From Candidatus Doudnabacteria bacterium (lineage in GTDB: Bacteria > Patescibacteriota > Doudnabacteria > UBA920): DNA of 64,000 nt. The position numbers and the translations under genes are program-made. A model generated the notes under the pieces. That model was not told the origin of the DNA and did not search any database. It saw only the letters and a program-made list of their open reading frames with translations. Positions 4,239-33,916 of this stretch are shown one piece after another (position 1 is the stretch's first letter; every line of letters starts with the position of its first letter). The stretch spans positions 11,421-75,420 of the forward strand of contig JADZEH010000032.1 in the NCBI GenBank assembly GCA_020850635.1, in the 5' to 3' direction.

Positions 4239-4960
4239 AATCAATTTCTAATACTGAAAAAGTTATTTATAGCGCTGGTGTGGTTTTGGCGATTATGGTT
4301 TATGTTATTACCATCCAGCAAAATCCAATTTTTGAGATAGCGTCATTACGTTTAGCTCGCAGTTTTGGTTTGATTTCTTTTGGCCTTTTGTTTTTGTCTT
4401 TAGTCGCATCGCCTTTGTACAAAGCTTTCCCCGAAGTTCCGGGCAAGCTGTGGTTTACCAAAGCGGCTAAACCTTTTGGAGTCTCTGCATTTTTCTTTGC
4501 TTTGCTTCACGGTCACTACGCGTTTTTCAAAGTTTTAAGAGGGTTTGAGGGACTATCATATCTCTCAACTCGGTATTTATTGGCAGTTGTAGTTTCAACT
4601 CTAACCTTAGGGTTGTTGGCAATTCTGACCGCAATCTCATTTGAGTTTGTGACTAAAAAACTTGGTGAAAGCTGGAAGTGGCTTCGCAAATTAGTGTATG
4701 TTGTGGCTTTCTTGGCACCATTGCATGCGTTGTTGATTGGAAGTCATTTCACGAGTGGAGATAGTCTAATCGGGCAGGTTTTTATTTTCTTGTGGTTGTT
4801 GTTGTTATTGCTTCAAGAGATTTGCTTACATCAGTATCTGTGTAAGCGGTATTCTCAAATCCATCCTAAAATTACCGGCGGTATTTTGATTATATTTTTC
4901 TCAGTAATATTTTATATAGTTCTCCTCACTGATACCTTTATTTCACATCATAATGTCTAA
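4235..4960 (+). CDS. integral membrane protein, possibly a ferric-reductase/MsrQ-like heme-binding TM domain
   Basis: 241 aa with 5-6 TM helices. Conserved His residues sit inside the helices (LLHGHYAFF, PLHALLIGSHF). The start overlaps the stop of the upstream gene (ATGA). Confidence 0.45.
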   Translation: MKSISNTEKVIYSAGVVLAIMVYVITIQQNPIFEIASLRLARSFGLISFGLLFLSLVASPLYKAFPEVPGKLWFTKAAKPFGVSAFFFALLHGHYAFFKVLRGFEGLSYLSTRYLLAVVVSTLTLGLLAILTAISFEFVTKKLGESWKWLRKLVYVVAFLAPLHALLIGSHFTSGDSLIGQVFIFLWLLLLLLQEICLHQYLCKRYSQIHPKITGGILIIFFSVIFYIVLLTDTFISHHNV

Positions 4961-5495
4961 TCAGAAACTGTCGTTATTACTTATCTGTGCTCTATTGTTT
5001 CTTCCAAACAACCTCTCGGCTCATACTCTGGAAAATGTTAGTAGTATTGGGGCAGTGTTACATATTAATCCCGATGATAACCCTGTGGTGAGACAGCCAG
5101 CGACTTTAGTTTTCTCGATGTCGGATCAAGAGAACCTTTTTAATGCAAAGCAGTGTGCTTGTACTTTAAGCATTAAGAGAGGAGAAGATGATTTAGGGAG
5201 TTTAGACGTTAGTGCTATTTCGCTTGATAAACTTGAATTGGTTTATACGTTTCCCGAAGTGGGTCTATACACTTTAACTTTAAACGGGATTCCAAAAGAT
5301 GGCGCAATTTTTGAACCATTTAATTTGGATTTTGATTTGCAAGTAGAGCGCACTGAGGCTGCTGTCGGTACAGATTTTAAAACTTTTTTACTCACGCATG
5401 GGCTTCACATTATTTTGTTTGGCGGAGCGTTTGCTGTAGTCTTTGCTATCCATTTGCGCGACTTGTATCGTAAACGAAAGCAGTCAAAACTCTAA
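4953..5495 (+). CDS. secreted protein with a C-terminal TM anchor, possibly a His-brace copper-binding YcnI/DUF1775-like protein
   Basis: 180 aa with a signal peptide ending ...NLSA|HTLENV. The mature N-terminal His is the arrangement seen in YcnI-like proteins. A C-terminal hydrophobic helix plus KRK follows. The family assignment is speculative. Confidence 0.4.
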   Translation: MSNQKLSLLLICALLFLPNNLSAHTLENVSSIGAVLHINPDDNPVVRQPATLVFSMSDQENLFNAKQCACTLSIKRGEDDLGSLDVSAISLDKLELVYTFPEVGLYTLTLNGIPKDGAIFEPFNLDFDLQVERTEAAVGTDFKTFLLTHGLHIILFGGAFAVVFAIHLRDLYRKRKQSKL

Positions 5496-13972: not shown

Positions 13973-16900
13973 ATGAAAAGGACTCAATACCTTGGTTTGC
14001 GCAGGTTAGTAGTTAGTTTCCTAGTATTTTTGGTTATTGTAATGCCTTTAAGGCCAGTATTCGCTCAGGAAGTGGAAGCATCTGTTCCTGTGACCACAGA
14101 ACCCGTTCAGCAAGAACCTCAGGCGATTAGTGAGCCTGAGCCAACTTCTATGGCAGATGAAACTCCTATCCCAACTGAGCAAGCAGACGAATTAGGCACA
14201 GATAAAACCGAGGCTCCTATTGGAGACGAAGATCCTGTGTCAGAAGAAGCTGTGGTTAAAGAAGATGAACCAAAGCCGGAAGAAGAAGTCGCTAAAATCT
14301 TTGGAGGTACCCAGGGTGTTGGATTACAATTTAAAATTCCTTCTGAACCTCAAAACTCTGTTGATGAATCAACGGGAGCTTTGATTTATGAGTATCCAAT
14401 AGTGATGCCAGAGGGTCGTTTAGGTATGACCCCAGCGGTGTCATTAAAATATAATTCTCAGAATATTACCAAGGTAGATTCGATCGTTGGATTAGGCTGG
14501 GAGCTGACTATTCCTTACATTCAACGTGAACGTGCTAAGGGAGTAGAAGGTATTTATACAAAAGCTAATTTCGTAACGTCTTTTTCGGGGAATCTTGTCC
14601 CCACAACAGATATTAGTTCTAGCCCGTACACCGTGTATTATTCTGAGGTTGACGATGGAAGCTTTCAAAAGCACACATTCAATTCTGATAATACATGGAC
14701 AATGACAGATAAATCTGGAAGGGTTTATACTTTTGGCGCCACAGCTGCCTCACGGCAGGATAACCCTGTTGATACTAGTCAGGTTTATAAGTGGATGATC
14801 TCCAAGATTAGTGATGTTCATGGTAATGAGATTCAGTATTCTTACACAAAGGACAATGGCCAAATTTATCCCAGTCAAATAGTCTATACATATCATTCCA
14901 CTTCACCAGCTATTCACAACGTCTCGTTTACTTATAATTCTCCAAGTAGTTACGGAGCCACTACATATAATGCGGCTTTCCCAGTTGTTACTAGTAAGGT
15001 TTTGGCTACGATTGATGTCACTACAACGGCTATTAATGGTGTTAGTACAAACAGTTATTCTTTGGTAAATACCAATGCCCAATTTATTAAGCAAAAATTA
15101 GTTACACGCATTGACAGAAGCTACACAAGTACTATCACCGAATCAGTTCCATATAGTGAATCTACTAGTTTTTCTTACTCAACTAAAACTCCAGGGTGGC
15201 AGCAAGGTACTCATTCCTTAGAAGGGTATTTAGTAAGAAATTCAGATTATATTTACAAAGATATTTTTACTGCTGATTTTGATGCCAATGGGTTTACTGA
15301 TGTGTTAATTTCTCATCACGATATTCCCAGTCAAAAATATAATAGATTGATGATGAACAATGGCTCAACTTTCACTGAGTCTAGCTCCGCATGGTCTTTG
15401 CCCACACACGATTTGAGTTCAAATGCATTTATTGCAGATATTAATGGAGATAAGTACCCAGATTTATTACCTAGGCAGTCTGATCCAAACCCTGTTTATT
15501 TAAATACAGGAAGTGGTTTTTCCGTTGATAATTCAAATAATTGGAAAATTTCGACATATGTGCCTGAGGCGCTTATTTGTGGTGCCAATGTCGGTGATTC
15601 AAATTCATTTGATACCAATTCTTTCTTACATGATATTAATGAAGATGGAAAAAACGACATCGTATTCTTTGGGGGAAGTTCCGACTTCAGGGTTTTTCTA
15701 AATAATGGAAACGGTTTTACTCTCTCAAATAACTACACCTTTACTCCACAATCAGGAGCTAATTTTACTATCCCCACGGTGTGTACCGGGGATTTAGATG
15801 CGGACGGCTATCAGACATTGATAGATGTCAATAACGACGGATTAAAAGATTACTTCCATGTAACCCATGGTACTTACTTAAATACTGGTTCTGGCTTTGC
15901 TTACGCAGCATCTTACCAGATTGATACCGCGGAGATGGATCGGACTGGTTTGGGGGATGTGAATGGTGACGGATTATTAGATTATATAGGTTTTAAATGG
16001 ACAAGCGGGGGAAATTATTGCGCTCGCTTGTTATTTAATGATGGAAATGGTTTTAAACAAATCAACCCCACAAACTATCCAACAAATTGCGACAATTCCG
16101 GTGTTTGGGATTTTTCAAATCTTAGCTACACCGGGGGAAATTCCAGTTTTTTCGGTACTTTAATGGATCTCACCGCGGACGGTTTACCAGATATCGTTGG
16201 TAGATTCTCTTCTTATGATATAAGGGGAAAAGTAAGGGCTGTTAATGACGGGGTGAGTTCCTGGGTTAATAATTCAAATGCTGGAGATCAATGGGTTGAT
16301 GTTATAGCGCCCTCTTATGGAAAATATTTTGATATTAACTCTGATGGAGTATTGGATTTTATTACACCATTAACTAGTTGGGGTTATGGTACTATGCCTG
16401 CCTCGATGACGTATATGGGTAAGCCAAGTATCCCAAACAGACTTACTCAGATTACCAATAGACTTGGAGCTCAGACAGTTGTCGATTTTGATACTGCCCC
16501 CACAGATCTTTATGATCGAGATAGTGCGCCAATGCCTGTAGTAAAGAAAATTACGACTCAGAATCTTGGTAGTGGGCAACCTGATATGGTAACCCAGTAT
16601 GATTATGAAAAAGGTCATTACTCTACCAATCCACTTACTAGCCAAGTAAAATTTGCGGGATTCAGCAAAGTTACCGCCACTGAATCCGGAATTGATTTAA
16701 CACCTCTTCGTGTTACAGATACATATTTTCATCAAGGTGACAATTCTGATTCTGGAAATAGCGAATATCAAGATCACATCTCAAAAATTGGTAAAGCTTA
16801 CAGAATTGAGATAAAAGATGGAAGCGGAAATCTATATTCTAAAACCCTGAATACATGGGAGCATGATCAAATATATGAGGGTCGTGATTTTGTTAAGCTT

Positions 16901-19900
16901 GCTCAAACAATGGAATTTAGTTTTGATGGTAATACAAATCACAGAGATAAAGCTGTGAGTTATGAATATGATAACTTTCTTGGAAATACTACTAAGCGGA
17001 TAGATTGGGGTGAGGTTACTGGTTCAGCGGATGGGACGTTTACTGATGTAGGTAACGACAAAATAGTTACTGATTTAATATATGCCACTGGTAGTTCCCA
17101 CGACGTAGTAGAGATGATTTCCTCCGAAATATCTACCGACCAGTCTCTAAACAAAGTAAGCGAGACTCATTATTACTATGATAATTTGTCTCTAGGTTCG
17201 ATTGATAAAGGAAATGAAACAAAAGTAGAAAAGTGGAAATCTGGCTCTGATTATATTAACGAACAGAAGGCATATAACTCTCTTGGATTAGTAACGCAAA
17301 CAACTGATCCAAGAGGAAAGAATTTAGTTTATGCATATGATAGTCATAACCTGTTTCCAGCAACGGTTACAAATCATTTAAGTCAGGCAACGCAGTATCA
17401 ATACCATTATTTCTTTGGTAAGCCACTTCAAGTGACCGATGTAAATAACAGGGTATTTAAAACGCTTTATGATGGCGCGGGTCGTATAATTGAGCAAAGA
17501 GAGCCAGATTTAAGCAACCCTACAGCGTTGGTTTCTAAATTTGTAAACACTTATTCAACTTTTGCAGGTGGAGAATTGACACGTCATGTTGAGTACATGA
17601 GTGCTTCTGAATACATAGATTCGTATACTTACTCTGATGCCTTGGGACGTGAAGTTCAGCAACGACTAGCTACCGAAGATAGTGGTAACTATAGAGTAAA
17701 CGATAAAGCTTATGATGCGTTGGGACGTCTGCAAAAAGAGTCATCGCAGTATTTTTCATCCGGAGATGCTAAGACTGTAGCGACAACGACAACTAATCTT
17801 TACACAACCACCTCATATGATCCTCTTGATCGCGTTACTGCAATTGCCAATAATATTGGGATCATAACCAACACTTTCGATGATTGGACTACCACAGTAA
17901 CAGATGCAAGGGGTAAGGTTAAGGTTTTGTACAACGATGCTCGCGGTAATTTAGTTAAAGTTGATGAAAGTAATTCAGGTGCTGTATATACTACTAATTA
18001 CGAATACAATTCAAATAATAATCTTGTTAAAATCACAGATGCTTTGGGTAACGTCCGTAACTTTACCTATGATGCCTTAGGACGTCGTTTAACTGCTCAG
18101 GATTTACATGCCCCGACTGATGTTACTTTTGGTACTTGGACCTACACTTATGATAACAACGGTAATATTACGTCTGTTGTCGATCCTAATAATCAAACCA
18201 TTAATTATACCTACGACGATTTAGGTCGCCTACTTACAGAAGATTTTACTGGTCAGTCGGAAACAGAACTAACTTATACTTATGATTCAGGTACGGATGG
18301 TATGGGTCGGTTGTCTTCTGTAGTTTCTCCCGGAGCTAATACTAGTTACTTATACAACGCACATGGTGGCGTTAAGCAGGAGATAAAAACCATAAATTCC
18401 ACTTCGTATCAGACAGACTATACTTATGATCGTCAGGGAAATCAGCTAGAGATTACTAACCCAGATGGGTCGAAAGTTAAGTATACCTATAATTTCGGAG
18501 GACAACTGGAAACGGTGCAACGTAAAGAAACTACAGATACTTCATTTATAAATGTTGTAAATGATTTTGATTATGGTCCTCATGGAAAAATCACCCTTCA
18601 AGTAAACCAAAATGGTTCTCAAACCAGCAACATTTATGACGCTACTAAGCTTTATCGGCTATCCTCTAAAATAACTACTATTAGTGGCGGTTCTAAGGTG
18701 CAAGGACTTACATATAGTTATGATAATAATAGTAATATTACTCAGGCCGTAGATAATTCAAATACTAATTCAGTAAAAACTGTTGCATATACCTATGATG
18801 ATTTAAACCGGTTACTTAGTTCAACAGCAACAGGGGTTGCTGCTGGTCAGTCGACTTATACCGAAGTTTATAGTTACGATGCTATTGGAAACATTCTGAC
18901 TAAAGCTACTACCGTTGGGGGAGGGGCTACGATAAATACCACGTATTCTTATGCAGGAAGTGCAGGGTCAAGTTATGCAAATCCTCACGCAGTTACTAGT
19001 ATTTCCGATGGAATAAATACTACCAACTTTACGTATGACAATAATGGTAATATGATTGGAGAAGGAAGTAAGACCTTTGCGTTTGATTATAATAATCGTA
19101 TGACGCAGTCAGTTGGCGTAAGTGGTAGTGGTCCGACAACCGTTAGTTTTAATTCTCTAGCTGGCGATGGTGCTATTTATCATCAAAGTTCTTCTTGGGA
19201 TACCGCTCACGATGCTTCGGTGGGTTCGTATGCGTCGTTTACTGTTAATAATTTTTACGTTAGAGCTGGTAAGAATACAAGCACTTCAAATCGTATTGAG
19301 CGTGGGTTCTTACCTTTCGACACATCTTCGTTGCCAGACAGTGCAAATATTACGAGCGCAAAACTTAAAGTCTATGTTTATTCTAAATTGAATAATGATA
19401 ATGACGGTACAGATTGGGTAACTGTGACTCAAGCCACTCAACCCAGTACAACCGTTCTAACAACAGGGGACTACGATTTAGCAGGAAGTATAAATAATCC
19501 GGTTGAAGGGGTTGATGCAGGGCAGCGTAAAGATATTACCAATGTAAGTGTAGGTGGTTACTTAACCTTTGATCTAAATGTAACCGGCCGAGGTTGGGTA
19601 AACACCAGTGGTTCGACAAAGCTTAGTTTGCGTGAAGGCCATGACGCTACAGATAGCGCTTTTGTGGGAACTTCTGGTCAGTATAACGAGCTACGTATTA
19701 TATCATCAGAATATACGGGAACCAGCGTTGATCCAATTTTGGAAGTTACTTATGGCAGTGCCCCTCAGGTCGTTACAACAAATTATAAGTATGATCACAC
19801 TGGCCAGAGAGTTAGCTTATCCAATGGTACGAAAACGGATGTTTATCCGTCAGCTGACTACAATACGGACGGAACGACACCTGTAAAGCACATTTTTGGT

Positions 19901-20911
19901 GCTGGTCAGACCGTAGCTACAATAAAGGGTTCTGGTGTTGGCGCCACTGCGTACTTAGTTCACACTGATCACCTCACTGGGTCTAGTGCTGTAACTAACA
20001 GCGGCGGTACGCTTGAAGAATTGATGGATTACTTCCCATTTGGGAATATTCGTCTCGACCAAAAAGTAGGAAGTTTTGATGAACAGCGTAAATACACGGG
20101 GCATGAGTATGACGTGGATACCGGACTTTCCTATATGGAAGCGAGGTATTATAATCCAAATATCGGAAGATTCCTTAGCCAAGATCCGGTCTTTCTTGCT
20201 TTGGGAAATGAAGAGGGAGTACAACAGAAAACCCAACAAGAATTACAAGAAATATTATCTGATCCTCAGTTATTGAATAGTTATTCTTACGCACGAAATA
20301 ATCCGTTAGCCTACATTGACGAAAACGGAGAGTGGCCATCTTGGAGTCAAATCAAAACTGGCTTCCAGACAGCATGGAATGTAGCCAAGCCGTTTGTACA
20401 GAACAAGATCAACCAAGTACAAAACTCTTGGAACTCATACAATGCTTATATGGACACTCCCGAGGCGCAGCAGAAGTCTCGAGATGCAGCAATGGGTGGT
20501 ATGGCTTACCTTGGACCTATTGGCGGAACTGATAGATACTTTGGATTCGGAGTAGGAAGTATTAATTCTGTAGGTAGTGGCGTGAACCTAACGTCCAGAG
20601 GAGCACTCCATATACAGAAGGGTCATACTTTATCTGGCCAAGCGCCGGGTAATAATAAAAGTTACTTCTTTAATGATGTTGATTATAAAGGTATAATAAC
20701 TAAGTATGGCAATCAAGCTAAGGGTGCAATTCAGGGCAATGGCAATGTGCAAAGAATTCTTGATATGGGCCGTCCAGTAGGATGGGATGCTACTACCGGT
20801 GGAGCAACTTCATTTATGACTATTATTACCGATAAAGCAGGTACTGTAATTACAAGCCATCCTGGCTTACCAACAACAATCAAAGCTATAGTTAAAACCA
20901 TTAAAAAGTAG
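13973..20911 (+). CDS. RHS/YD-repeat polymorphic toxin (TcB/TcC-like), 2312 aa, secreted
   Basis: Signal peptide, then an acidic Pro/Glu-rich linker. An SpvB-like N-domain follows (YEYPIVMPEGRLGMTPAVSLKYNSQ). Several FG-GAP/VCBS-like Asp-rich repeats come next (DINGDKYPDLL, DINEDGKNDIVF, DLDADGY..DVNNDGLKDY, DVNGDGLLDY). A long YD-repeat shell contains many YxYDxxGRL units (YTYDDLGRLL, YDALGRL, YTYDDLNRLL). A non-YD domain of about 170 aa is inserted at about aa 1640-1800 (...YNELRIISSEY..., DNRLRE-like). The RHS core is YTGHEYDVDTGLSYMEARYYNPNIGRFLSQDPV...YSYARNNPLAYIDENGE. A C-terminal extension of about 190 aa, Cys-free, is of unknown family. Confidence 0.9.
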   Translation: MKRTQYLGLRRLVVSFLVFLVIVMPLRPVFAQEVEASVPVTTEPVQQEPQAISEPEPTSMADETPIPTEQADELGTDKTEAPIGDEDPVSEEAVVKEDEPKPEEEVAKIFGGTQGVGLQFKIPSEPQNSVDESTGALIYEYPIVMPEGRLGMTPAVSLKYNSQNITKVDSIVGLGWELTIPYIQRERAKGVEGIYTKANFVTSFSGNLVPTTDISSSPYTVYYSEVDDGSFQKHTFNSDNTWTMTDKSGRVYTFGATAASRQDNPVDTSQVYKWMISKISDVHGNEIQYSYTKDNGQIYPSQIVYTYHSTSPAIHNVSFTYNSPSSYGATTYNAAFPVVTSKVLATIDVTTTAINGVSTNSYSLVNTNAQFIKQKLVTRIDRSYTSTITESVPYSESTSFSYSTKTPGWQQGTHSLEGYLVRNSDYIYKDIFTADFDANGFTDVLISHHDIPSQKYNRLMMNNGSTFTESSSAWSLPTHDLSSNAFIADINGDKYPDLLPRQSDPNPVYLNTGSGFSVDNSNNWKISTYVPEALICGANVGDSNSFDTNSFLHDINEDGKNDIVFFGGSSDFRVFLNNGNGFTLSNNYTFTPQSGANFTIPTVCTGDLDADGYQTLIDVNNDGLKDYFHVTHGTYLNTGSGFAYAASYQIDTAEMDRTGLGDVNGDGLLDYIGFKWTSGGNYCARLLFNDGNGFKQINPTNYPTNCDNSGVWDFSNLSYTGGNSSFFGTLMDLTADGLPDIVGRFSSYDIRGKVRAVNDGVSSWVNNSNAGDQWVDVIAPSYGKYFDINSDGVLDFITPLTSWGYGTMPASMTYMGKPSIPNRLTQITNRLGAQTVVDFDTAPTDLYDRDSAPMPVVKKITTQNLGSGQPDMVTQYDYEKGHYSTNPLTSQVKFAGFSKVTATESGIDLTPLRVTDTYFHQGDNSDSGNSEYQDHISKIGKAYRIEIKDGSGNLYSKTLNTWEHDQIYEGRDFVKLAQTMEFSFDGNTNHRDKAVSYEYDNFLGNTTKRIDWGEVTGSADGTFTDVGNDKIVTDLIYATGSSHDVVEMISSEISTDQSLNKVSETHYYYDNLSLGSIDKGNETKVEKWKSGSDYINEQKAYNSLGLVTQTTDPRGKNLVYAYDSHNLFPATVTNHLSQATQYQYHYFFGKPLQVTDVNNRVFKTLYDGAGRIIEQREPDLSNPTALVSKFVNTYSTFAGGELTRHVEYMSASEYIDSYTYSDALGREVQQRLATEDSGNYRVNDKAYDALGRLQKESSQYFSSGDAKTVATTTTNLYTTTSYDPLDRVTAIANNIGIITNTFDDWTTTVTDARGKVKVLYNDARGNLVKVDESNSGAVYTTNYEYNSNNNLVKITDALGNVRNFTYDALGRRLTAQDLHAPTDVTFGTWTYTYDNNGNITSVVDPNNQTINYTYDDLGRLLTEDFTGQSETELTYTYDSGTDGMGRLSSVVSPGANTSYLYNAHGGVKQEIKTINSTSYQTDYTYDRQGNQLEITNPDGSKVKYTYNFGGQLETVQRKETTDTSFINVVNDFDYGPHGKITLQVNQNGSQTSNIYDATKLYRLSSKITTISGGSKVQGLTYSYDNNSNITQAVDNSNTNSVKTVAYTYDDLNRLLSSTATGVAAGQSTYTEVYSYDAIGNILTKATTVGGGATINTTYSYAGSAGSSYANPHAVTSISDGINTTNFTYDNNGNMIGEGSKTFAFDYNNRMTQSVGVSGSGPTTVSFNSLAGDGAIYHQSSSWDTAHDASVGSYASFTVNNFYVRAGKNTSTSNRIERGFLPFDTSSLPDSANITSAKLKVYVYSKLNNDNDGTDWVTVTQATQPSTTVLTTGDYDLAGSINNPVEGVDAGQRKDITNVSVGGYLTFDLNVTGRGWVNTSGSTKLSLREGHDATDSAFVGTSGQYNELRIISSEYTGTSVDPILEVTYGSAPQVVTTNYKYDHTGQRVSLSNGTKTDVYPSADYNTDGTTPVKHIFGAGQTVATIKGSGVGATAYLVHTDHLTGSSAVTNSGGTLEELMDYFPFGNIRLDQKVGSFDEQRKYTGHEYDVDTGLSYMEARYYNPNIGRFLSQDPVFLALGNEEGVQQKTQQELQEILSDPQLLNSYSYARNNPLAYIDENGEWPSWSQIKTGFQTAWNVAKPFVQNKINQVQNSWNSYNAYMDTPEAQQKSRDAAMGGMAYLGPIGGTDRYFGFGVGSINSVGSGVNLTSRGALHIQKGHTLSGQAPGNNKSYFFNDVDYKGIITKYGNQAKGAIQGNGNVQRILDMGRPVGWDATTGGATSFMTIITDKAGTVITSHPGLPTTIKAIVKTIKK

Positions 20912-20914
20912 TAT

Positions 20915-21226
20915 ATGCAACATATAGGAATTGAAATTGATAATGAGACATTTAGCAAAGAAAAAAGTAGTGAGAATAACTTTGCTAAGGTATTAGGGTA
21001 TGTGTGGGAGAATACTCAGAAAGAAGATTATCCGTGGATATGGGGCATAGATGCTTATGGTTTAACAGTATTTAATATTCAGCAAACCCCAAATCTCGTA
21101 AACGAGTTATCAAAACTGAAAGATAAAGTGCAAGAAGAAGATATTAAAGCAGATATTCAAAGTTTAATAGACTTTATTACAGAGAATATGGAGCAGCACT
21201 TATATTTAAAGTTTATTGGAGATTAA
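20915..21226 (+). CDS. putative immunity protein for the RHS C-terminal toxin
   Basis: 103-aa acidic protein. It starts 4 nt after the RHS stop and has no signal peptide. This is the usual position of the cognate immunity gene. Confidence 0.5.
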   Translation: MQHIGIEIDNETFSKEKSSENNFAKVLGYVWENTQKEDYPWIWGIDAYGLTVFNIQQTPNLVNELSKLKDKVQEEDIKADIQSLIDFITENMEQHLYLKFIGD

Positions 21227-21294
21227 TAGATTATAGATTGGTAAAGCAAACCACTCCGCACTATGTGCGGAGTGGTTTGACTCATGCAGAGCTT

Positions 21295-21678
21295 ATGGAT
21301 AAAAAGAAATATGTAATTGATGGAAATAATTTCGACACCTTAGAAGGGTTTTATGATGAGGTAAGTAATGTCTTAATCCCCGGTGCTTCTTGGGGAAGAA
21401 ACTTTGATGCATTTAATGACATATTATATGGTGGATTTGGTACCCCAGATGAAGGCTTTATCCTAATATGGAAAAATGTAAAGAGATCAAAGTCTGACTT
21501 GGGAGATACCGCAACCCTTAAATGGTTAGAAGGAAAATTGCATAATATTCATCCTTCAAATATACCGATATGGAAACAAAGAATAGCTATGCATAAATTA
21601 AGGTACGGCGAAACACTCTTTATGATACTAGTAGATATTATCTTAAACCATGAAGATATAGAGCTGAGATTTCAATAA
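21295..21678 (+). CDS. barstar-like immunity protein (barnase-inhibitor family)
   Basis: The tracked ORF begins at 21238, but a perfect hairpin (CCACTCCGCACTATGTGCGGAGTGG, 21251-21277) occupies its first codons, so the ATG at 21295 (MDKKKYVIDG) is the likely start. The block YVIDGNNFDTLEGFYDEVSNVLIPGASWGRNFDAFNDIL...ILIW parallels the barstar core (INGEQI..ISDLHQTL...LPEYYGENLDALWDCL...LVLEW). Confidence 0.6.
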   Translation: MDKKKYVIDGNNFDTLEGFYDEVSNVLIPGASWGRNFDAFNDILYGGFGTPDEGFILIWKNVKRSKSDLGDTATLKWLEGKLHNIHPSNIPIWKQRIAMHKLRYGETLFMILVDIILNHEDIELRFQ

Positions 21679-21681
21679 ATT

Positions 21682-21715
21682 AAAAACAGCTATCGTGATG
21701 TAATAGCTGTTTTTA
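21682..21715. terminator. bidirectional intrinsic terminator / left edge of the recombinase element
   Basis: AAAAACAGCTAT-CGTGATGTA-ATAGCTGTTTTT hairpin with A and T runs on both sides. It lies between the convergent barstar-like and recombinase genes. Confidence 0.55.
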
Positions 21716-23410
21716 ATTTGATTTTTTGCGGCCCATCCATTTATTCCCTCGTTTTATTTTACCTTCAATTTTGAATTGAATTGCGCTAGCATCAGATGTC
21801 TGATCGGGATCGTCGTATGCTTTTAGTTTTATTGGGATTGAGCCAATTACTTTCACTTCAGTGTTGTTATAAATTACTTCTTTAATGTAATCTTTTAAAA
21901 ATTCACGAGTCTTGTCGCTGTTGTTACAAAGATTTAATCTTGATCTTACTGATTCGCAATATCTTTTTATACTAGCTTCTATAACTTCTTCTTTATGAAG
22001 ACTAGGCACCTGATTAAGCAGCTTTGCTTTATTGACATTGTGATTAGTAAGTTCACTATCATAGCTTAAGCACCTTTTTACATATTCGGCTCTATTAATT
22101 TTACCGCTGGCATATTGATCAATTGTTTGTTTTCTTTTAGTAGCAAGATCAGCTATTCGCTTTCCATTCTCTTTCAGCTTAGATTCAATTTGTTTTCGGT
22201 TTTTCAATTGACCTACATTAGTAGTTAGGCATAACTCTAGTTTGCTCGAGTCAGTCATGCTTTCTTCGATCATATTCATTACGCAAGTGTCTAGTAGCTG
22301 AGTTAGTACCTCGGGATTGTTGCATCTCACCAACCCAGTATTCGCAGTTTGTGAATGCATTCGTTGTAAAGAAATTTGGCTACATCTGTAAGCAGTCTTA
22401 TGAAATATTTTATTTGGATCCGCAACTCTGCGCTTGTCTTTATAAGTCCGGAAGTATGAGGTGAAAAATCTACCACATATTCCGCAGTTAACTAAACCTG
22501 AAAGTAACTGTGTTTGCTTCGGGTTTCTATACTGTTCGCTGTTATATTTAATTCTTGCTTGTACCTTATTAAAAAGTTCCTGCGAGATGATCGCAGGAAC
22601 TTTCACTGGTATCCATTCAGATTTATTTTTGTAAACCTTCTTGCCGTACTTCAGTCCTCTTAGGGGACTATTTGGCTCTTTCACATAAGATCTCGTATTA
22701 TAGTATTTAATTCCGGTATAAGTGTGGTTTTGCAAAATGTTTTTTAGTTTAGAGGTATCCCAAAGTTTTCGACCCATCTTAGTAATAGCACCAATATTTT
22801 CCAGAGTTCGCACTAATTTTGCCCAACTAAATCCAGCAGCGTAGCTTTTGAAAATATATCTAACTGTTTTCGCTTCCTTTTCATTGATTATAAATTTACC
22901 TGGCTGAGTGTCGGTTCTGCGAATATATTCATACCCTAAAGCATTGTAACCGTAGTTTAATGGGATGCCTTGCCGTAGCTTGTGTAGCTTTCCTCGCTGG
23001 CTGCGTTCAATAATTTTAGCTCTTTCTAATTCTGATACTGCACCAAGTACTGTTAAGGTAAACTTGTTCTCAGGGTTATGGATGTAATCTTTGCCATTAA
23101 TTATTATTTGCTTTTTGTATTTGAGTATTTCCGCGATAATTAAGTTTTGGTAAGTAACATCTCTGGCTATGCGATCTGAATTTAAGAAGTAGATAGTATC
23201 AAACAGGGGAGTCTTAAGATCACTGCGTAGCTGATCAAGTGCAGGTCTGTCGATCTTGGCTCCACTATACCCATCGTCAATGTATTCTTTCGTTAACACA
23301 TCGCCACTTTTAGAAACTTGCTTTTTAAGTTCCTCAATTTGGCTTTCAATGGTTCGCTCTTTTTCTTGCAGAGCTGTACTTACTCTGGCATAGATCGCTG
23401 CTTTCTTCAT
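21713..23410 (-). CDS. large serine recombinase (resolvase/invertase catalytic domain + recombinase domain + zinc ribbon)
   Basis: 565 aa. The N-terminus MKKAAIYARVSTALQ carries the catalytic Ser. A long recombinase domain and a Cys-rich ribbon (CGICGRFF...C) follow. It overlaps the upstream paralogue by 4 nt (ATGA). Confidence 0.85.
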   Translation of the reverse strand: MKKAAIYARVSTALQEKERTIESQIEELKKQVSKSGDVLTKEYIDDGYSGAKIDRPALDQLRSDLKTPLFDTIYFLNSDRIARDVTYQNLIIAEILKYKKQIIINGKDYIHNPENKFTLTVLGAVSELERAKIIERSQRGKLHKLRQGIPLNYGYNALGYEYIRRTDTQPGKFIINEKEAKTVRYIFKSYAAGFSWAKLVRTLENIGAITKMGRKLWDTSKLKNILQNHTYTGIKYYNTRSYVKEPNSPLRGLKYGKKVYKNKSEWIPVKVPAIISQELFNKVQARIKYNSEQYRNPKQTQLLSGLVNCGICGRFFTSYFRTYKDKRRVADPNKIFHKTAYRCSQISLQRMHSQTANTGLVRCNNPEVLTQLLDTCVMNMIEESMTDSSKLELCLTTNVGQLKNRKQIESKLKENGKRIADLATKRKQTIDQYASGKINRAEYVKRCLSYDSELTNHNVNKAKLLNQVPSLHKEEVIEASIKRYCESVRSRLNLCNNSDKTREFLKDYIKEVIYNNTEVKVIGSIPIKLKAYDDPDQTSDASAIQFKIEGKIKRGNKWMGRKKSN

Positions 23411-25119
23411 AATTTTTCAATTACTAATTTCCCATATTCCTTCTTTGGAATTTCTTTGCCGTTAATGGTTTGATCATCTGTATTTAATTGCTTCACTCTA
23501 TTCAGTGCTTCTATTCGGTTGATTACTTGTTCAATCTTGAATTCAATTGGAACTGTTTCATCTTTTGAGACTTCAATCGCAATAGCACCTATCAGTTTGA
23601 TTTTGTCATCGGATTTGCCGTTTTTGCGGTATTCCACCTTGGCGATGTAGTCCAGTAAGAATTGTCGTTTAGAATTAAAATCTCCACATCTAGTAAATTG
23701 AGACTTTAAAGTTTTACAGTATTGTTCAGTACTCGCTTTGATAACTTCCGGTTTTTGAAATAGAGGTAGATATTTTAATAATTCAGCTCGCTTAGTTTGC
23801 AGGTTGCCAACTTCTTCATCATAGATAGAGATTCTCTTAACATATTCTTCTCGTTCCAAATCCCCAAAAGAGTAGAGATCAATTATCCGTTCTTTTTGTT
23901 TGCTAACTGTTTTGATTTTACTCTCCACATCTTTAATCTGTTTATCTAGTTTAGATTGATTCTTTTGATTATTGCCTAAGCTAATATAATTTCGGAGCTC
24001 ATTAGGTTTAAGTAATATACTCGTGACCATTTCAACTACCGTTGAATCTAGTACCCTGGTATCAATCTCAGGGTTATGGTTTATGCCTTTAGTTCTGCAT
24101 CGGTATACCGCTTTTTGATATAGCTTAATTCCAGACTTTCTTTCGACTTTGTAATACCTTCGATAGGCGAAGCATCTCAGTTTGCATTTACCGCAGAACA
24201 CTAGATTAGATAGTAGCTGGGTTCGCTGTGCATTTCTAAAACATTCATAGTTATATTTCATCCTTGCTTGCACTTGGTCAAATAATTTCTTTGGTACAAT
24301 TTGCGGTATTTTTATTCCAACCCATTCCGAGCGGTCTCTGTGGATTTTCTTGCCGCGCTTAGTTCTGCGGATTACATTTCCAACCGCATTCGTATCCGTC
24401 ATGGTATTGAAATACTTTGTGCCTGTATAGGTCTCGTTTTGTAGAATGTATTTTAGATGCCCATCACCAAGTTTGTTTCTTTGCTCTTTGGCTAGACCCT
24501 TCGTTTTTAGCTGTCTCGCTAATTCTTTCAGTCCAATATTTCCTTTTGCATACGTTTCAAAAATATACCTTACTATTTTTGCCTCGTGTTCGTTGATTGC
24601 ATAAGAGGGGGAAGAGTCTGTTGTTCTTGGCGTGTATATATAACCATAAATATGACAACCGTTGCTTAACAGATATCCTTGTTTTAATCTGTGCTGCGAT
24701 CCGCGCCTTGTTCTCTCTAACGTTTTAGCTCGCTCCAATTCTGATACCGCACCTAATACCGTGAGTGTGAATTTGTTTTCTGGGTTATTTACATAATCCT
24801 TCCCATTGATAATGATCTGCTTTTTGTAATGCAGAAATTCGCTGATAATAATATTCTGGTAAGTTACATCTCTGGCAATGCGATCAGCATTCAAAATGTA
24901 GATAGTCTGAAATCCCAGAGTTCTAATATCTCTCCTCAGGTCATTCATAGCTGGTCTATCCAGCAAGCATCCGCTGAATCCATCGTCGATGTATTTTTTT
25001 ACCAAAACATCCCCAGAAGCTCTAATTTGCCTTTTAAGCTCCGATATTTGGCTTTCTATAGTTCGCTCCTTCTGCTGGGCATCGGAGCTTACTCTTGCAT
25101 AAAATACTGCTCTTTTCAT
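23407..25119 (-). CDS. large serine recombinase (paralogue of the downstream gene)
   Basis: 570 aa with N-terminus MKRAVFYARVSSDAQ. It is about 60-65% identical to the 21713-23410 product over the first 150 aa (…IARDVTYQN.II.E.L.YKKQIIINGKDY.NPENKFTLTVLGAVSELERAK…). This is a tandem pair reminiscent of CcrA/CcrB-type two-recombinase elements. Confidence 0.85.
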   Translation of the reverse strand: MKRAVFYARVSSDAQQKERTIESQISELKRQIRASGDVLVKKYIDDGFSGCLLDRPAMNDLRRDIRTLGFQTIYILNADRIARDVTYQNIIISEFLHYKKQIIINGKDYVNNPENKFTLTVLGAVSELERAKTLERTRRGSQHRLKQGYLLSNGCHIYGYIYTPRTTDSSPSYAINEHEAKIVRYIFETYAKGNIGLKELARQLKTKGLAKEQRNKLGDGHLKYILQNETYTGTKYFNTMTDTNAVGNVIRRTKRGKKIHRDRSEWVGIKIPQIVPKKLFDQVQARMKYNYECFRNAQRTQLLSNLVFCGKCKLRCFAYRRYYKVERKSGIKLYQKAVYRCRTKGINHNPEIDTRVLDSTVVEMVTSILLKPNELRNYISLGNNQKNQSKLDKQIKDVESKIKTVSKQKERIIDLYSFGDLEREEYVKRISIYDEEVGNLQTKRAELLKYLPLFQKPEVIKASTEQYCKTLKSQFTRCGDFNSKRQFLLDYIAKVEYRKNGKSDDKIKLIGAIAIEVSKDETVPIEFKIEQVINRIEALNRVKQLNTDDQTINGKEIPKKEYGKLVIEKL

Positions 25120-32763: not shown

Positions 32764-33585
32764 TTGAACTATATGCAAGCTAGGTACTATAATTCTAGTA
32801 TTGGTAGATTTATCAGCCAGGATCCAGCTTACTTGAATCTAAATAGATTAGATGTGCAGTTAAGTGATCCACAAAGTTGGAATAGTTATGCTTATGCCAG
32901 GAACAACCCACTTGCATTAGCTGATCCAACAGGGGAATTCTGGGATACTTTTATAGATGGTATATCTCTTGGGTACAGTCTGCATCAGACTTTATACAAT
33001 GGAACCAAAGCTTTGGGTGGATATGCTTCCATCGGTGCTGGGAAGGTGTTTAACAATCAGTATGCCATAAATGCTGGTAGAGCAGATGTAGCTCGGTATG
33101 GGGCAAAGACAGCCAATAGTGCTCAGGGTTTAGCGATTGATGCAGTTGGTACTGCAGTTCCTTTTGTTCCTGCTGCTGGTATTAAAGCGGCGGCTAAGGC
33201 TGATGCAGTTATAGATATAGCAAAATCTGTCAAACAGGCTGGGGTTGCTGAGGTGTCTCCACTTCTTCGTTCAGGGGATTCTTTTACACAGGCAGGAGAG
33301 CATGTGCTTAGAGATCACCCAAATCGATATCCTGGCATGTCAGCTGAGGATGTAGCAAACTTGGCAAGACAAACTCAGAAGACCGCGAATACAAAGGGAA
33401 CCATCAGAGGTATTGACCCAAGAACTGGACAACCAGTGAATAAAAATTATTATGGGAGTAAGTCTACTGGTCAAATGTTCATAAAAACTAACTTAGGGAA
33501 TTCAACTATTTTTCCTAAGCAAAATATTGGTAGTTATATATATAGACACATATCGAAAGATATTGGTAAATTTGGAAGGAGATAG
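32764..33585 (+). CDS. orphan RHS C-terminal toxin module (RHS core tail plus alternative toxin tip)
   Basis: The tracked start is TTG, but homology to the main RHS core begins at an in-frame stop near 32713. The conceptual translation there is YAGSELDADTGLNYMQARYYNSSIGRFISQDPAYL...SYAYARNNPLALADPTGE, against YTGHEYDVDTGLSYMEARYYNPNIGRFLSQDPVFL...SYSYARNNPLAYIDENGE in the main gene. A toxin domain of about 200 aa follows, Ala/Gly-rich and unlike the main tip. Confidence 0.7.
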   Translation: MNYMQARYYNSSIGRFISQDPAYLNLNRLDVQLSDPQSWNSYAYARNNPLALADPTGEFWDTFIDGISLGYSLHQTLYNGTKALGGYASIGAGKVFNNQYAINAGRADVARYGAKTANSAQGLAIDAVGTAVPFVPAAGIKAAAKADAVIDIAKSVKQAGVAEVSPLLRSGDSFTQAGEHVLRDHPNRYPGMSAEDVANLARQTQKTANTKGTIRGIDPRTGQPVNKNYYGSKSTGQMFIKTNLGNSTIFPKQNIGSYIYRHISKDIGKFGRR

Positions 33586-33586
33586 T

Positions 33587-33916
33587 ATGATTAAGTTTGA
33601 TCAATATACTTGGTTAGTTATAATTGAAGCTATCGATTCATGTTCAGAAGCTGATCCTGAGTTAATTGAAAAAGAAACTGGTTTTCAGTTACAACAATTT
33701 GAAGACTTTAAAGAAAAATACGTAAATTCTATTCAAAAGAGCATGAATCAAGATGATTTACCAATAGTAGTAGCAGCTTTAGAATGGATGTTGGTGACCA
33801 AGAATGATTCGGACATATTACAGATTCATAAGGAAGATGGATTACGTCTTCTTGAATTACTAAGTCAGAAAAGGGGTGAAATAAGAGAAGCGGCATGGTC
33901 ATTGCATTCTGTATAG
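33587..33916 (+). CDS. putative immunity protein for the orphan RHS toxin
   Basis: An ATG sits 1 nt after the orphan toxin stop, preceded by GGAAGGAG. It encodes about 109 acidic residues. The track gives a longer 33527 start that overlaps the toxin. Confidence 0.5.
   Translation: MIKFDQYTWLVIIEAIDSCSEADPELIEKETGFQLQQFEDFKEKYVNSIQKSMNQDDLPIVVAALEWMLVTKNDSDILQIHKEDGLRLLELLSQKRGEIREAAWSLHSV

Follow-up and report, generated by a model that had tools for sequence, protein, structure and literature searches.

A locus for an RHS polymorphic toxin was analyzed in a 64,000-nucleotide (nt) stretch of DNA from a Candidatus Doudnabacteria bacterium (GenBank assembly GCA_020850635.1, contig JADZEH010000032.1, positions 11,421 to 75,420 of the forward strand). 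This whole stretch is called the window. The locus is read, with good confidence, as a classical RHS toxin locus. It consists of a basic C-terminal tip that is predicted to be an RNase of the BECR fold, a protein of 103 amino acids (aa) as the cognate immunity partner, and a barstar gene as a separate orphan. An earlier note on this DNA had proposed that the tip is a barnase/T1-fold RNase, given the barstar-like gene downstream. Its sequence facts, namely the end of the RHS open reading frame (ORF), the 103-aa ORF and the barstar-like ORF, hold in translation. The features of the locus are the following, with pI as the isoelectric point.

13973..20911, plus strand: RHS polymorphic toxin gene, 2312 aa, with signal peptide, SpvB, FG-GAP, RHS repeats and C-terminal tip
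20297..20335, plus strand: RHS core end (NNPLAYIDENGEW), a PxxxxDPxG[LW]-type motif that marks the start of RHS tips
20336..20908, plus strand: whole tip, 191 aa, directly after the RHS core end
20336..20575, plus strand: pre-toxin linker, 80 aa, PSWSQIKTG...GFGVGSINSVG, kept in relatives with another toxin domain
20576..20908, plus strand: toxin domain, about 111 aa, pI about 10, predicted BECR-fold RNase, Ntox50-like
20915..21226, plus strand: predicted cognate immunity gene, 103 aa, acidic, starting 3 nt after the toxin stop, with motifs D.YGDT.FN..Q and H.YL.F.GD-COOH
21247..21279, plus strand: perfect 15-bp GC-rich hairpin, AAACCACTCCGCAC-TAT-GTGCGGAGTGGTTT, inside the 68-nt spacer between the immunity gene and the barstar gene
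21295..21678, plus strand: barstar-family gene, 127 aa, ATG at 21295, carrying GRNFDAFNDIL...FILIW

The toxin domain of the RHS tip

The 2312-aa ORF has Pfam matches to RHS_repeat (2.6e-28), SpvB (3.5e-18) and FG-GAP_3 (7.4e-17), and its C-terminal end reads ...RILDMGRPVGWD...TIITDKAGTVITSHPGLPTTIKAIVKTIKK. The core-end motif shows no variation among aligned related tips or in a consensus of 22 toxin carriers. RHS repeats, the core-end motif, a variable tip and a directly downstream immunity gene are all present, which identifies the locus as that of an RHS polymorphic toxin.

The tip was used as a whole in a word-index search. Only two proteins (P0001 and P0002, 46-79% identical to the window over the whole tips) were returned, and the match was confined to the 80-aa linker. 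Immediately 3' of GFGVGSINS[VA]G, both proteins diverge from the window tip into a different C-terminal toxin domain. Since they share the first 80 residues and then differ, the tip is composed of a conserved pre-toxin linker and a swappable toxin module. The linker is probably a recombination handle, or homology arm, for tip replacement. The toxin domain of P0001 (locus L001, 4932..5705) and P0002 ends with ...VVLNKAGNVVTWFG...IKEILKSTKK, which echoes the ...TIITDKAGTVITSHPG...IKAIVKTIKK of the window toxin. This alternative domain may be another divergent BECR domain, partnered by a 94-aa immunity protein.

The toxin module was searched with phmmer against 1.84 billion cluster representatives, and 449 matches were found at E<=1e-3. 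The toxin match ends no more than 7 residues from the C-terminus in 147 of the 150 best matches, and the carrier proteins range from 94 to 3814 aa. RHS_repeat was found in 12, and a PAAR domain in one, of 22 longer carriers that came from isolate genomes and metagenome-assembled genomes (MAGs). No Pfam or NCBIfam model covers this family. The sole signal is a sub-threshold match to Ntox50 (PF15542), where the window toxin scores 16.3-17.5 bits against a membership cut-off of 22.2, and just 6 of 40 family members have an Ntox50 E value below 0.01. The family conserves, in the numbering of a 117-aa segment beginning at 20558, H18, H23, K34-S35, F37, R66, D77, T84, T88, T99 and P102-G103. T99 is Thr in 145 of 150 family representatives and sits in strand 96-102.

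AlphaFold2 was used to model the toxin from a 40-sequence alignment (pLDDT 88.4, pTM 0.80). The model shows an N-terminal helix holding both His, followed by a beta-meander. The N-terminal helix, the meander of 4-5 strands and the structural similarity to BECR members indicate a BECR fold. The top three structural matches are secreted RNase toxins, and the other matches include further CdiA-CT tRNases, RelE, BrnT and colicin D/E5. Foldseek on the model picks out 8hhj_B alone, and the fold is common to the model and the solved Ntox50 members. No sequence similarity is detectable to CdiA-CT Ykris (PDB 5E3E), the other BECR CdiA-CT tRNases, colicin D/E5 or RelE, and the catalytic residues and the immunity proteins differ from theirs.

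The nearest characterized relatives are MafB2-CT (MGI-2, N. meningitidis B16B6; PDB 8HHJ) and YxiD-CTD (B. subtilis 6633; PDB 9V8I). Both are Ntox50 domains with shown RNase and tRNase activity, and three His are needed in each (PMC9970974, PMC12700104). In the profile-to-MafB2 alignment, the essential His335 is matched by H23, and Lys346 by K34. The equivalent of MafB2 His402 is I/V in the toxin family, and HxVP (His409) is replaced by T-[AMS]-[FHY]-P. The window toxin, which lies below the Ntox50 cut-off, is thus without HxVP and without two of the three essential His; it has the HxxxxH motif, invariant R66, D77, T84 and T88, and T-x-[FHY]-P-G. Zhang et al. 2012 noted that Ntox50 has His where BECR RNases usually carry a last-strand Ser/Thr (PMC3482391). 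Unlike Ntox50, the window family retains the last-strand Thr (T99). Given the Ntox50-like fold and the differing residues, the tip is assigned to the BECR RNase assemblage, where Ntox50 is its closest neighbour but not its own family.

An RNA-cutting toxin of MafB2/YxiD (Ntox50-like) type, and not a barnase, is the most likely identity of the tip. H18 and H23 of the HxxxxH helix, helped by R66 and the last-strand T99, are the likely catalytic residues. Both the RNase activity and these catalytic roles are what we infer for the domain; the toxin would probably kill the target cell via cleavage of tRNA or other RNA.

Two other readings of the tip were weighed. One holds that it is a barnase/T1-type microbial RNase, with the barstar-like protein as its second or true immunity protein. 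A real barstar-family gene does lie on the strand of the toxin gene, 384 nt beyond the toxin stop, and Zhang et al. 2012 placed barnase in the same broad BECR superfold and listed Imm-Barstar with a non-barnase BECR toxin, Ntox21 (PMC3482391). However, PF00545 (barnase / microbial RNase) has no match to the tip at E<=1. The parallel that had been drawn between the C-termini of the tip and barnase is at chance level, as hhalign of the toxin-family profile with barnase gave 0.9% probability and aligned a stretch different from that proposed. The near-C-terminal His taken as barnase-like is position 101, the His of SHPG in the window, a site at which 119 of the 150 representatives have Phe, 24 have His and 6 have Tyr. 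No conserved Glu is found among these representatives, and the Glu/Arg/C-terminal His catalytic set of barnase is not present. The structure-prediction search against barnase, RNase Sa and T1 suggested in the earlier note led to the BECR/Ntox50-like fold, with no chain of barnase, binase, RNase Sa or T1 in the top 60 structural matches. A table entry of Zhang et al. for Tox-Barnase, 'H, H, [ST], FP', is superficially like the toxin-family pattern; it could not be settled from the text and is given no weight because the profile and fold tests against barnase were negative. The barnase/T1 reading is thus largely refuted and is regarded as highly improbable. The other reading, that the tip has a BECR-like fold without being a nuclease, e.g. 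a ParE-like or ribosome-dependent toxin, is also quite unlikely. Secreted RNase toxins fill the first three places among the structural matches; the N-terminal helix and last strand hold the invariant His, His, Arg and Thr, an arrangement also seen in BECR RNases (PMC3482391); and a strongly basic toxin is paired with an acidic immunity protein.

The 103-aa immunity protein and the barstar gene

The 103-aa protein has a charge of -10.3 and a pI of 4.5, versus +7.7 and 10.1 for the toxin. No Pfam or NCBIfam model matched it, and the searches against family models verified the previous statement that it is unrelated to barstar. To follow its linkage, 37 toxin-family loci were fetched from one-genome-per-species contigs of many phyla, and all of their ORFs (1809) were searched with hidden Markov models (HMMs). 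The first-round HMM, built from the window protein and 8 close homologues, found a 94-108-aa ORF just 3' of the toxin in 22 loci; in locus L047 it also matched a more distant downstream ORF of 238 aa, in its C-terminal part. With the iterated HMM, a homologue was found directly 3' of the toxin, at a gap of -4 to +28 nt, in 31 of the 34 loci that have a toxin ORF and room downstream. The count is 32 if locus L030, in which the called start overlaps the toxin ORF, is included. These loci span Acidobacteriota, Bacteroidota, Proteobacteria, Planctomycetota, Chloroflexota and others, with about one match per locus, and the family aligns end to end. The barstar HMM had zero matches in the 37 toxin loci (within 4 kb).

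The sister locus L004 shows the same pair. Its RHS gene carries the same toxin (...ALHIQRTH...TSHPGLPSTIKAVVKTLKK) and precedes the 103-aa gene; next comes a gene on the opposite strand, and no barstar is present. Because of the adjacency in 31 of 34 loci, the L004 pair without barstar, and the basic/acidic charge pairing, the 103-aa protein is assigned as the putative cognate immunity protein of the RHS tip. By analogy with MafI2 and YxxD, it would most likely cover the basic RNA-binding face of the toxin. Its structure was modeled from a 9-sequence alignment and resembles YfbM and DMP12, a DNA mimic. This resemblance is tentative, as the pLDDT was only 69.5, and MafI2 and YxxD were not retrieved by this modest-confidence model. 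Compared with the MafB2 and YxiD systems, the immunity family of the window is unrelated by sequence, and delivery is by RHS and not by MafB or by LXG and the type VII secretion system.

The 103-aa gene was also found away from its toxin. In L001-L003, it is the second gene, behind a different tip and the 94-aa partner of that tip. In L005-L007, it is present without any toxin. In L008, it ends an array after a 94-aa gene. In all seven loci, the gene is a displaced orphan; therefore, orphan arrays of this kind exist in this lineage.

The gene at 21295..21678 is a true barstar. Its product matches PF01337 (E 1.3e-9; 38.3 bits, where the cut-off is 23.4), this domain is present in all 370 homologues, and the identical protein at NCBI is named 'barstar family protein [Candidatus Doudnabacteria bacterium]'; an exact copy of the 103-aa protein is annotated in the same MAG. 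D38 and D42 of the DxxxD motif are invariant in the subfamily and align with both Asp of the barstar LDALWD helix. The barstar core recognized in the earlier note is thereby confirmed. Relative to Bacillus barstar, the subfamily has about 40 extra aa and a conserved C-terminal part (H86-P-S-N89, G105.T.F109, I115...H119..IE).

The linkage of the barstar was examined in 80 metagenomic loci encoding the 127-136-aa subfamily. The toxin family and the 103-aa homologues were found in 0 of the 80. The genes upstream of barstar are heterogeneous and are unrelated housekeeping or mobile genes (DapB, transposase, TsaE), and no barnase was seen among them in the loci examined. Similarly, tblastn of barnase, RNase Sa and RNase T1 against the 64-kb window found no barnase-like ORF. 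The closest homologue, with 72% identity, is the sixth gene in a run of small genes behind an RHS gene whose core end is 62% identical to that of the window and whose tip is different. A homologue with 64% identity has the same 131-aa, 243-aa and barstar neighbours, and other close homologues stand alone. The L008 array shares the same small-gene pool (243/256-aa paralogues, DUF7674).

Acidic proteins of 243-256 aa flank the closest barstar homologues and are located at L009 3277..4008 and 4418..5188, L133 1429..2160, and L008 1126..1893. They share a C-terminal ...FNG.[IV].[KA][IV]E[EL].[TK]N..TG..FYW......[ND][AE]YDVV.DP.. and have no Pfam match. The 243-aa gene ends with a stop codon that overlaps the start of barstar. 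This family, recurrent in RHS-linked arrays, is probably another immunity family. Synteny via a fatty-acid desaturase beside the RHS arrays was considered and rejected, as identity between the two proteins is just 24% over 83 aa.

The presence of the barstar gene therefore implies nothing on the nature of the RHS tip. The earlier note had allowed for either two immunity proteins acting on one toxin or a barstar remnant from a previous tip. The absence of barstar from all 37 toxin loci speaks against the former, and the latter is supported. The window barstar is best described as a separate orphan or stand-alone immunity cassette, a predicted RNase inhibitor that is unlinked to the RHS toxin. 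As for its history, it would be left over from an earlier tip or else be a stockpiled shield against foreign barnase-type toxins.

Cassette boundaries and neighbouring mobile DNA

The hairpin between the 103-aa gene and the barstar gene folds with -29.7 kcal/mol (z -5.6). It has no proper U-tract and was not called a canonical terminator in the terminator scan. It occurs once in the window and is not a repeated element, and it lies within an alternative TTG-start reading frame of the barstar. The loci cease to be homologous after the 103-aa stop codon; at this point the window carries the hairpin and L008 carries a GC hairpin with a T-run. The hairpin could be a terminator-like boundary of the toxin-immunity cassette, acting as a terminator, an attenuator or an RNA-processing site. 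The barstar beyond it would be one of the orphan immunity cassettes that, in the standard picture, build up 3' of RHS genes (PMC3482391). The L008-type arrays, the displaced 103-aa genes and the homology break at the stop codon fit this accumulation.

Downstream of the barstar, the following features were found.

21676..21720, no strand assigned: AT-rich 18-bp hairpin flanked by T/A runs, between the barstar gene and the convergent recombinase gene, -17.6 kcal/mol, z -4.7
21713..25119, minus strand: two tandem large serine recombinases, 565 and 570 aa, with Resolvase, Recombinase and Zn-ribbon domains
32764..33585: orphan RHS tip, 273-aa ORF, starting inside an RHS core end (YMEARYYN...NNPL...GE) that is 57% identical to that of the main gene
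33587..33916: acidic ORF 3' of the orphan tip, 109 aa, pI 4.5

The AT-rich hairpin looks like a bidirectional terminator. After the recombinases, a terminase-like helix-turn-helix protein, a ParB-N6/N4 methylase fusion and a 1132-aa protein without a Pfam match extend to about 32500. The orphan tip has a basic C-terminal domain (pI 10.3) with the motifs HVLRDH, GIDPRTGQP and STIFP. It has zero Pfam or PDB sequence matches, and hhalign with the main toxin family gave 25% probability and E 7.8e-4. An integrated mobile element of about 11 kb thus appears to split the RHS immunity/orphan array. The split is tentative, since neither flanking nor att-like direct repeats of >=10 nt were detected where the recombinase-bearing segment presumably begins and ends.

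The mobile DNA offers another origin for the barstar, namely as cargo of the adjacent element (21713 to about 32500) that would guard against barnase-type toxins. Between the barstar stop and the convergent recombinase gene lie 35 nt, with a hairpin common to both; recombinase, terminase-like and ParB-methylase genes come next; and the barstar subfamily is mostly stand-alone in varied contexts, sometimes beside transposases. However, the closest barstar homologues (72% and 64% identity) are inside RHS-linked small-gene arrays without a recombinase, and their array partners, the 243/256-aa paralogues and DUF7674, recur in the L008 array that holds the 103-aa gene. The absence of att-like repeats at the presumed junctions also speaks against this origin. 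Carriage as mobile cargo is considered unlikely, and the orphan immunity cassette of an RHS locus is the preferred reading.

Relation to known systems and significance

The locus shares one half of the barnase-barstar system (PF00545/PF01337), as 21295..21678 is a true barstar member with the DxxxD helix, and barnase cassettes with barstar are known on RHS toxins of other genomes (PMC3482391). In contrast, the window tip is without the barnase sequence, fold or catalytic pattern. The barstar also differs from classical barstar in its 127-aa length, its conserved C-terminal extension and its mostly stand-alone subfamily.

The arrangement resembles the RHS/CdiA orphan arrays (PMC3482391). The main RHS gene, the immunity gene and the barstar are followed about 11 kb further on by an orphan tip with an acidic partner. 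The core end and the linker are conserved and could serve as a recombination handle, and the 103-aa gene is an orphan elsewhere. Unlike those arrays, the window array is broken by about 11 kb with two large serine recombinases and phage-like genes, and the host belongs to the candidate phyla radiation (CPR).

A broader proposal is offered tentatively, and we lean slightly against it as a whole. The pair would be an uncurated, phylum-spanning toxin-immunity system (at least 449 clusters at 50% identity), in which a sister of Ntox50 has a rebuilt active site of two helix His, Arg and Thr in place of His-His/HxVP. The immunity protein would have a new YfbM/DMP12-like acidic fold and would possibly be a nucleic-acid mimic. 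Separately, the 127-aa 'long barstar' would be a widespread stand-alone shield against foreign RNase toxins.

The locus is ordinary RHS polymorphic-toxin biology. The modest novelty is a widespread toxin-immunity pair without a curated model and with an active-site pattern unlike that of its nearest characterized relatives. The CPR host (Candidatus Doudnabacteria) encodes a 2312-aa Sec-signal SpvB/FG-GAP/RHS toxin, and related metagenome loci are L004, L008 and L009. A toxin of this size is a large spending on interbacterial antagonism for an organism with a presumably small genome. That a nearby barstar gene implies a barnase-like toxin was an attractive inference, which is corrected here. 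In polymorphic-toxin loci, only the gene directly 3' of the tip is trustworthy as the cognate immunity gene, and further genes are often orphans. A probable function, a secreted RNase with its inhibitor, is given herein to a large family pair without a Pfam or NCBIfam model, found mainly on RHS proteins in many phyla. The active-site pattern, which differs from that of the two characterized relatives, provides a concrete residue set for mutation.

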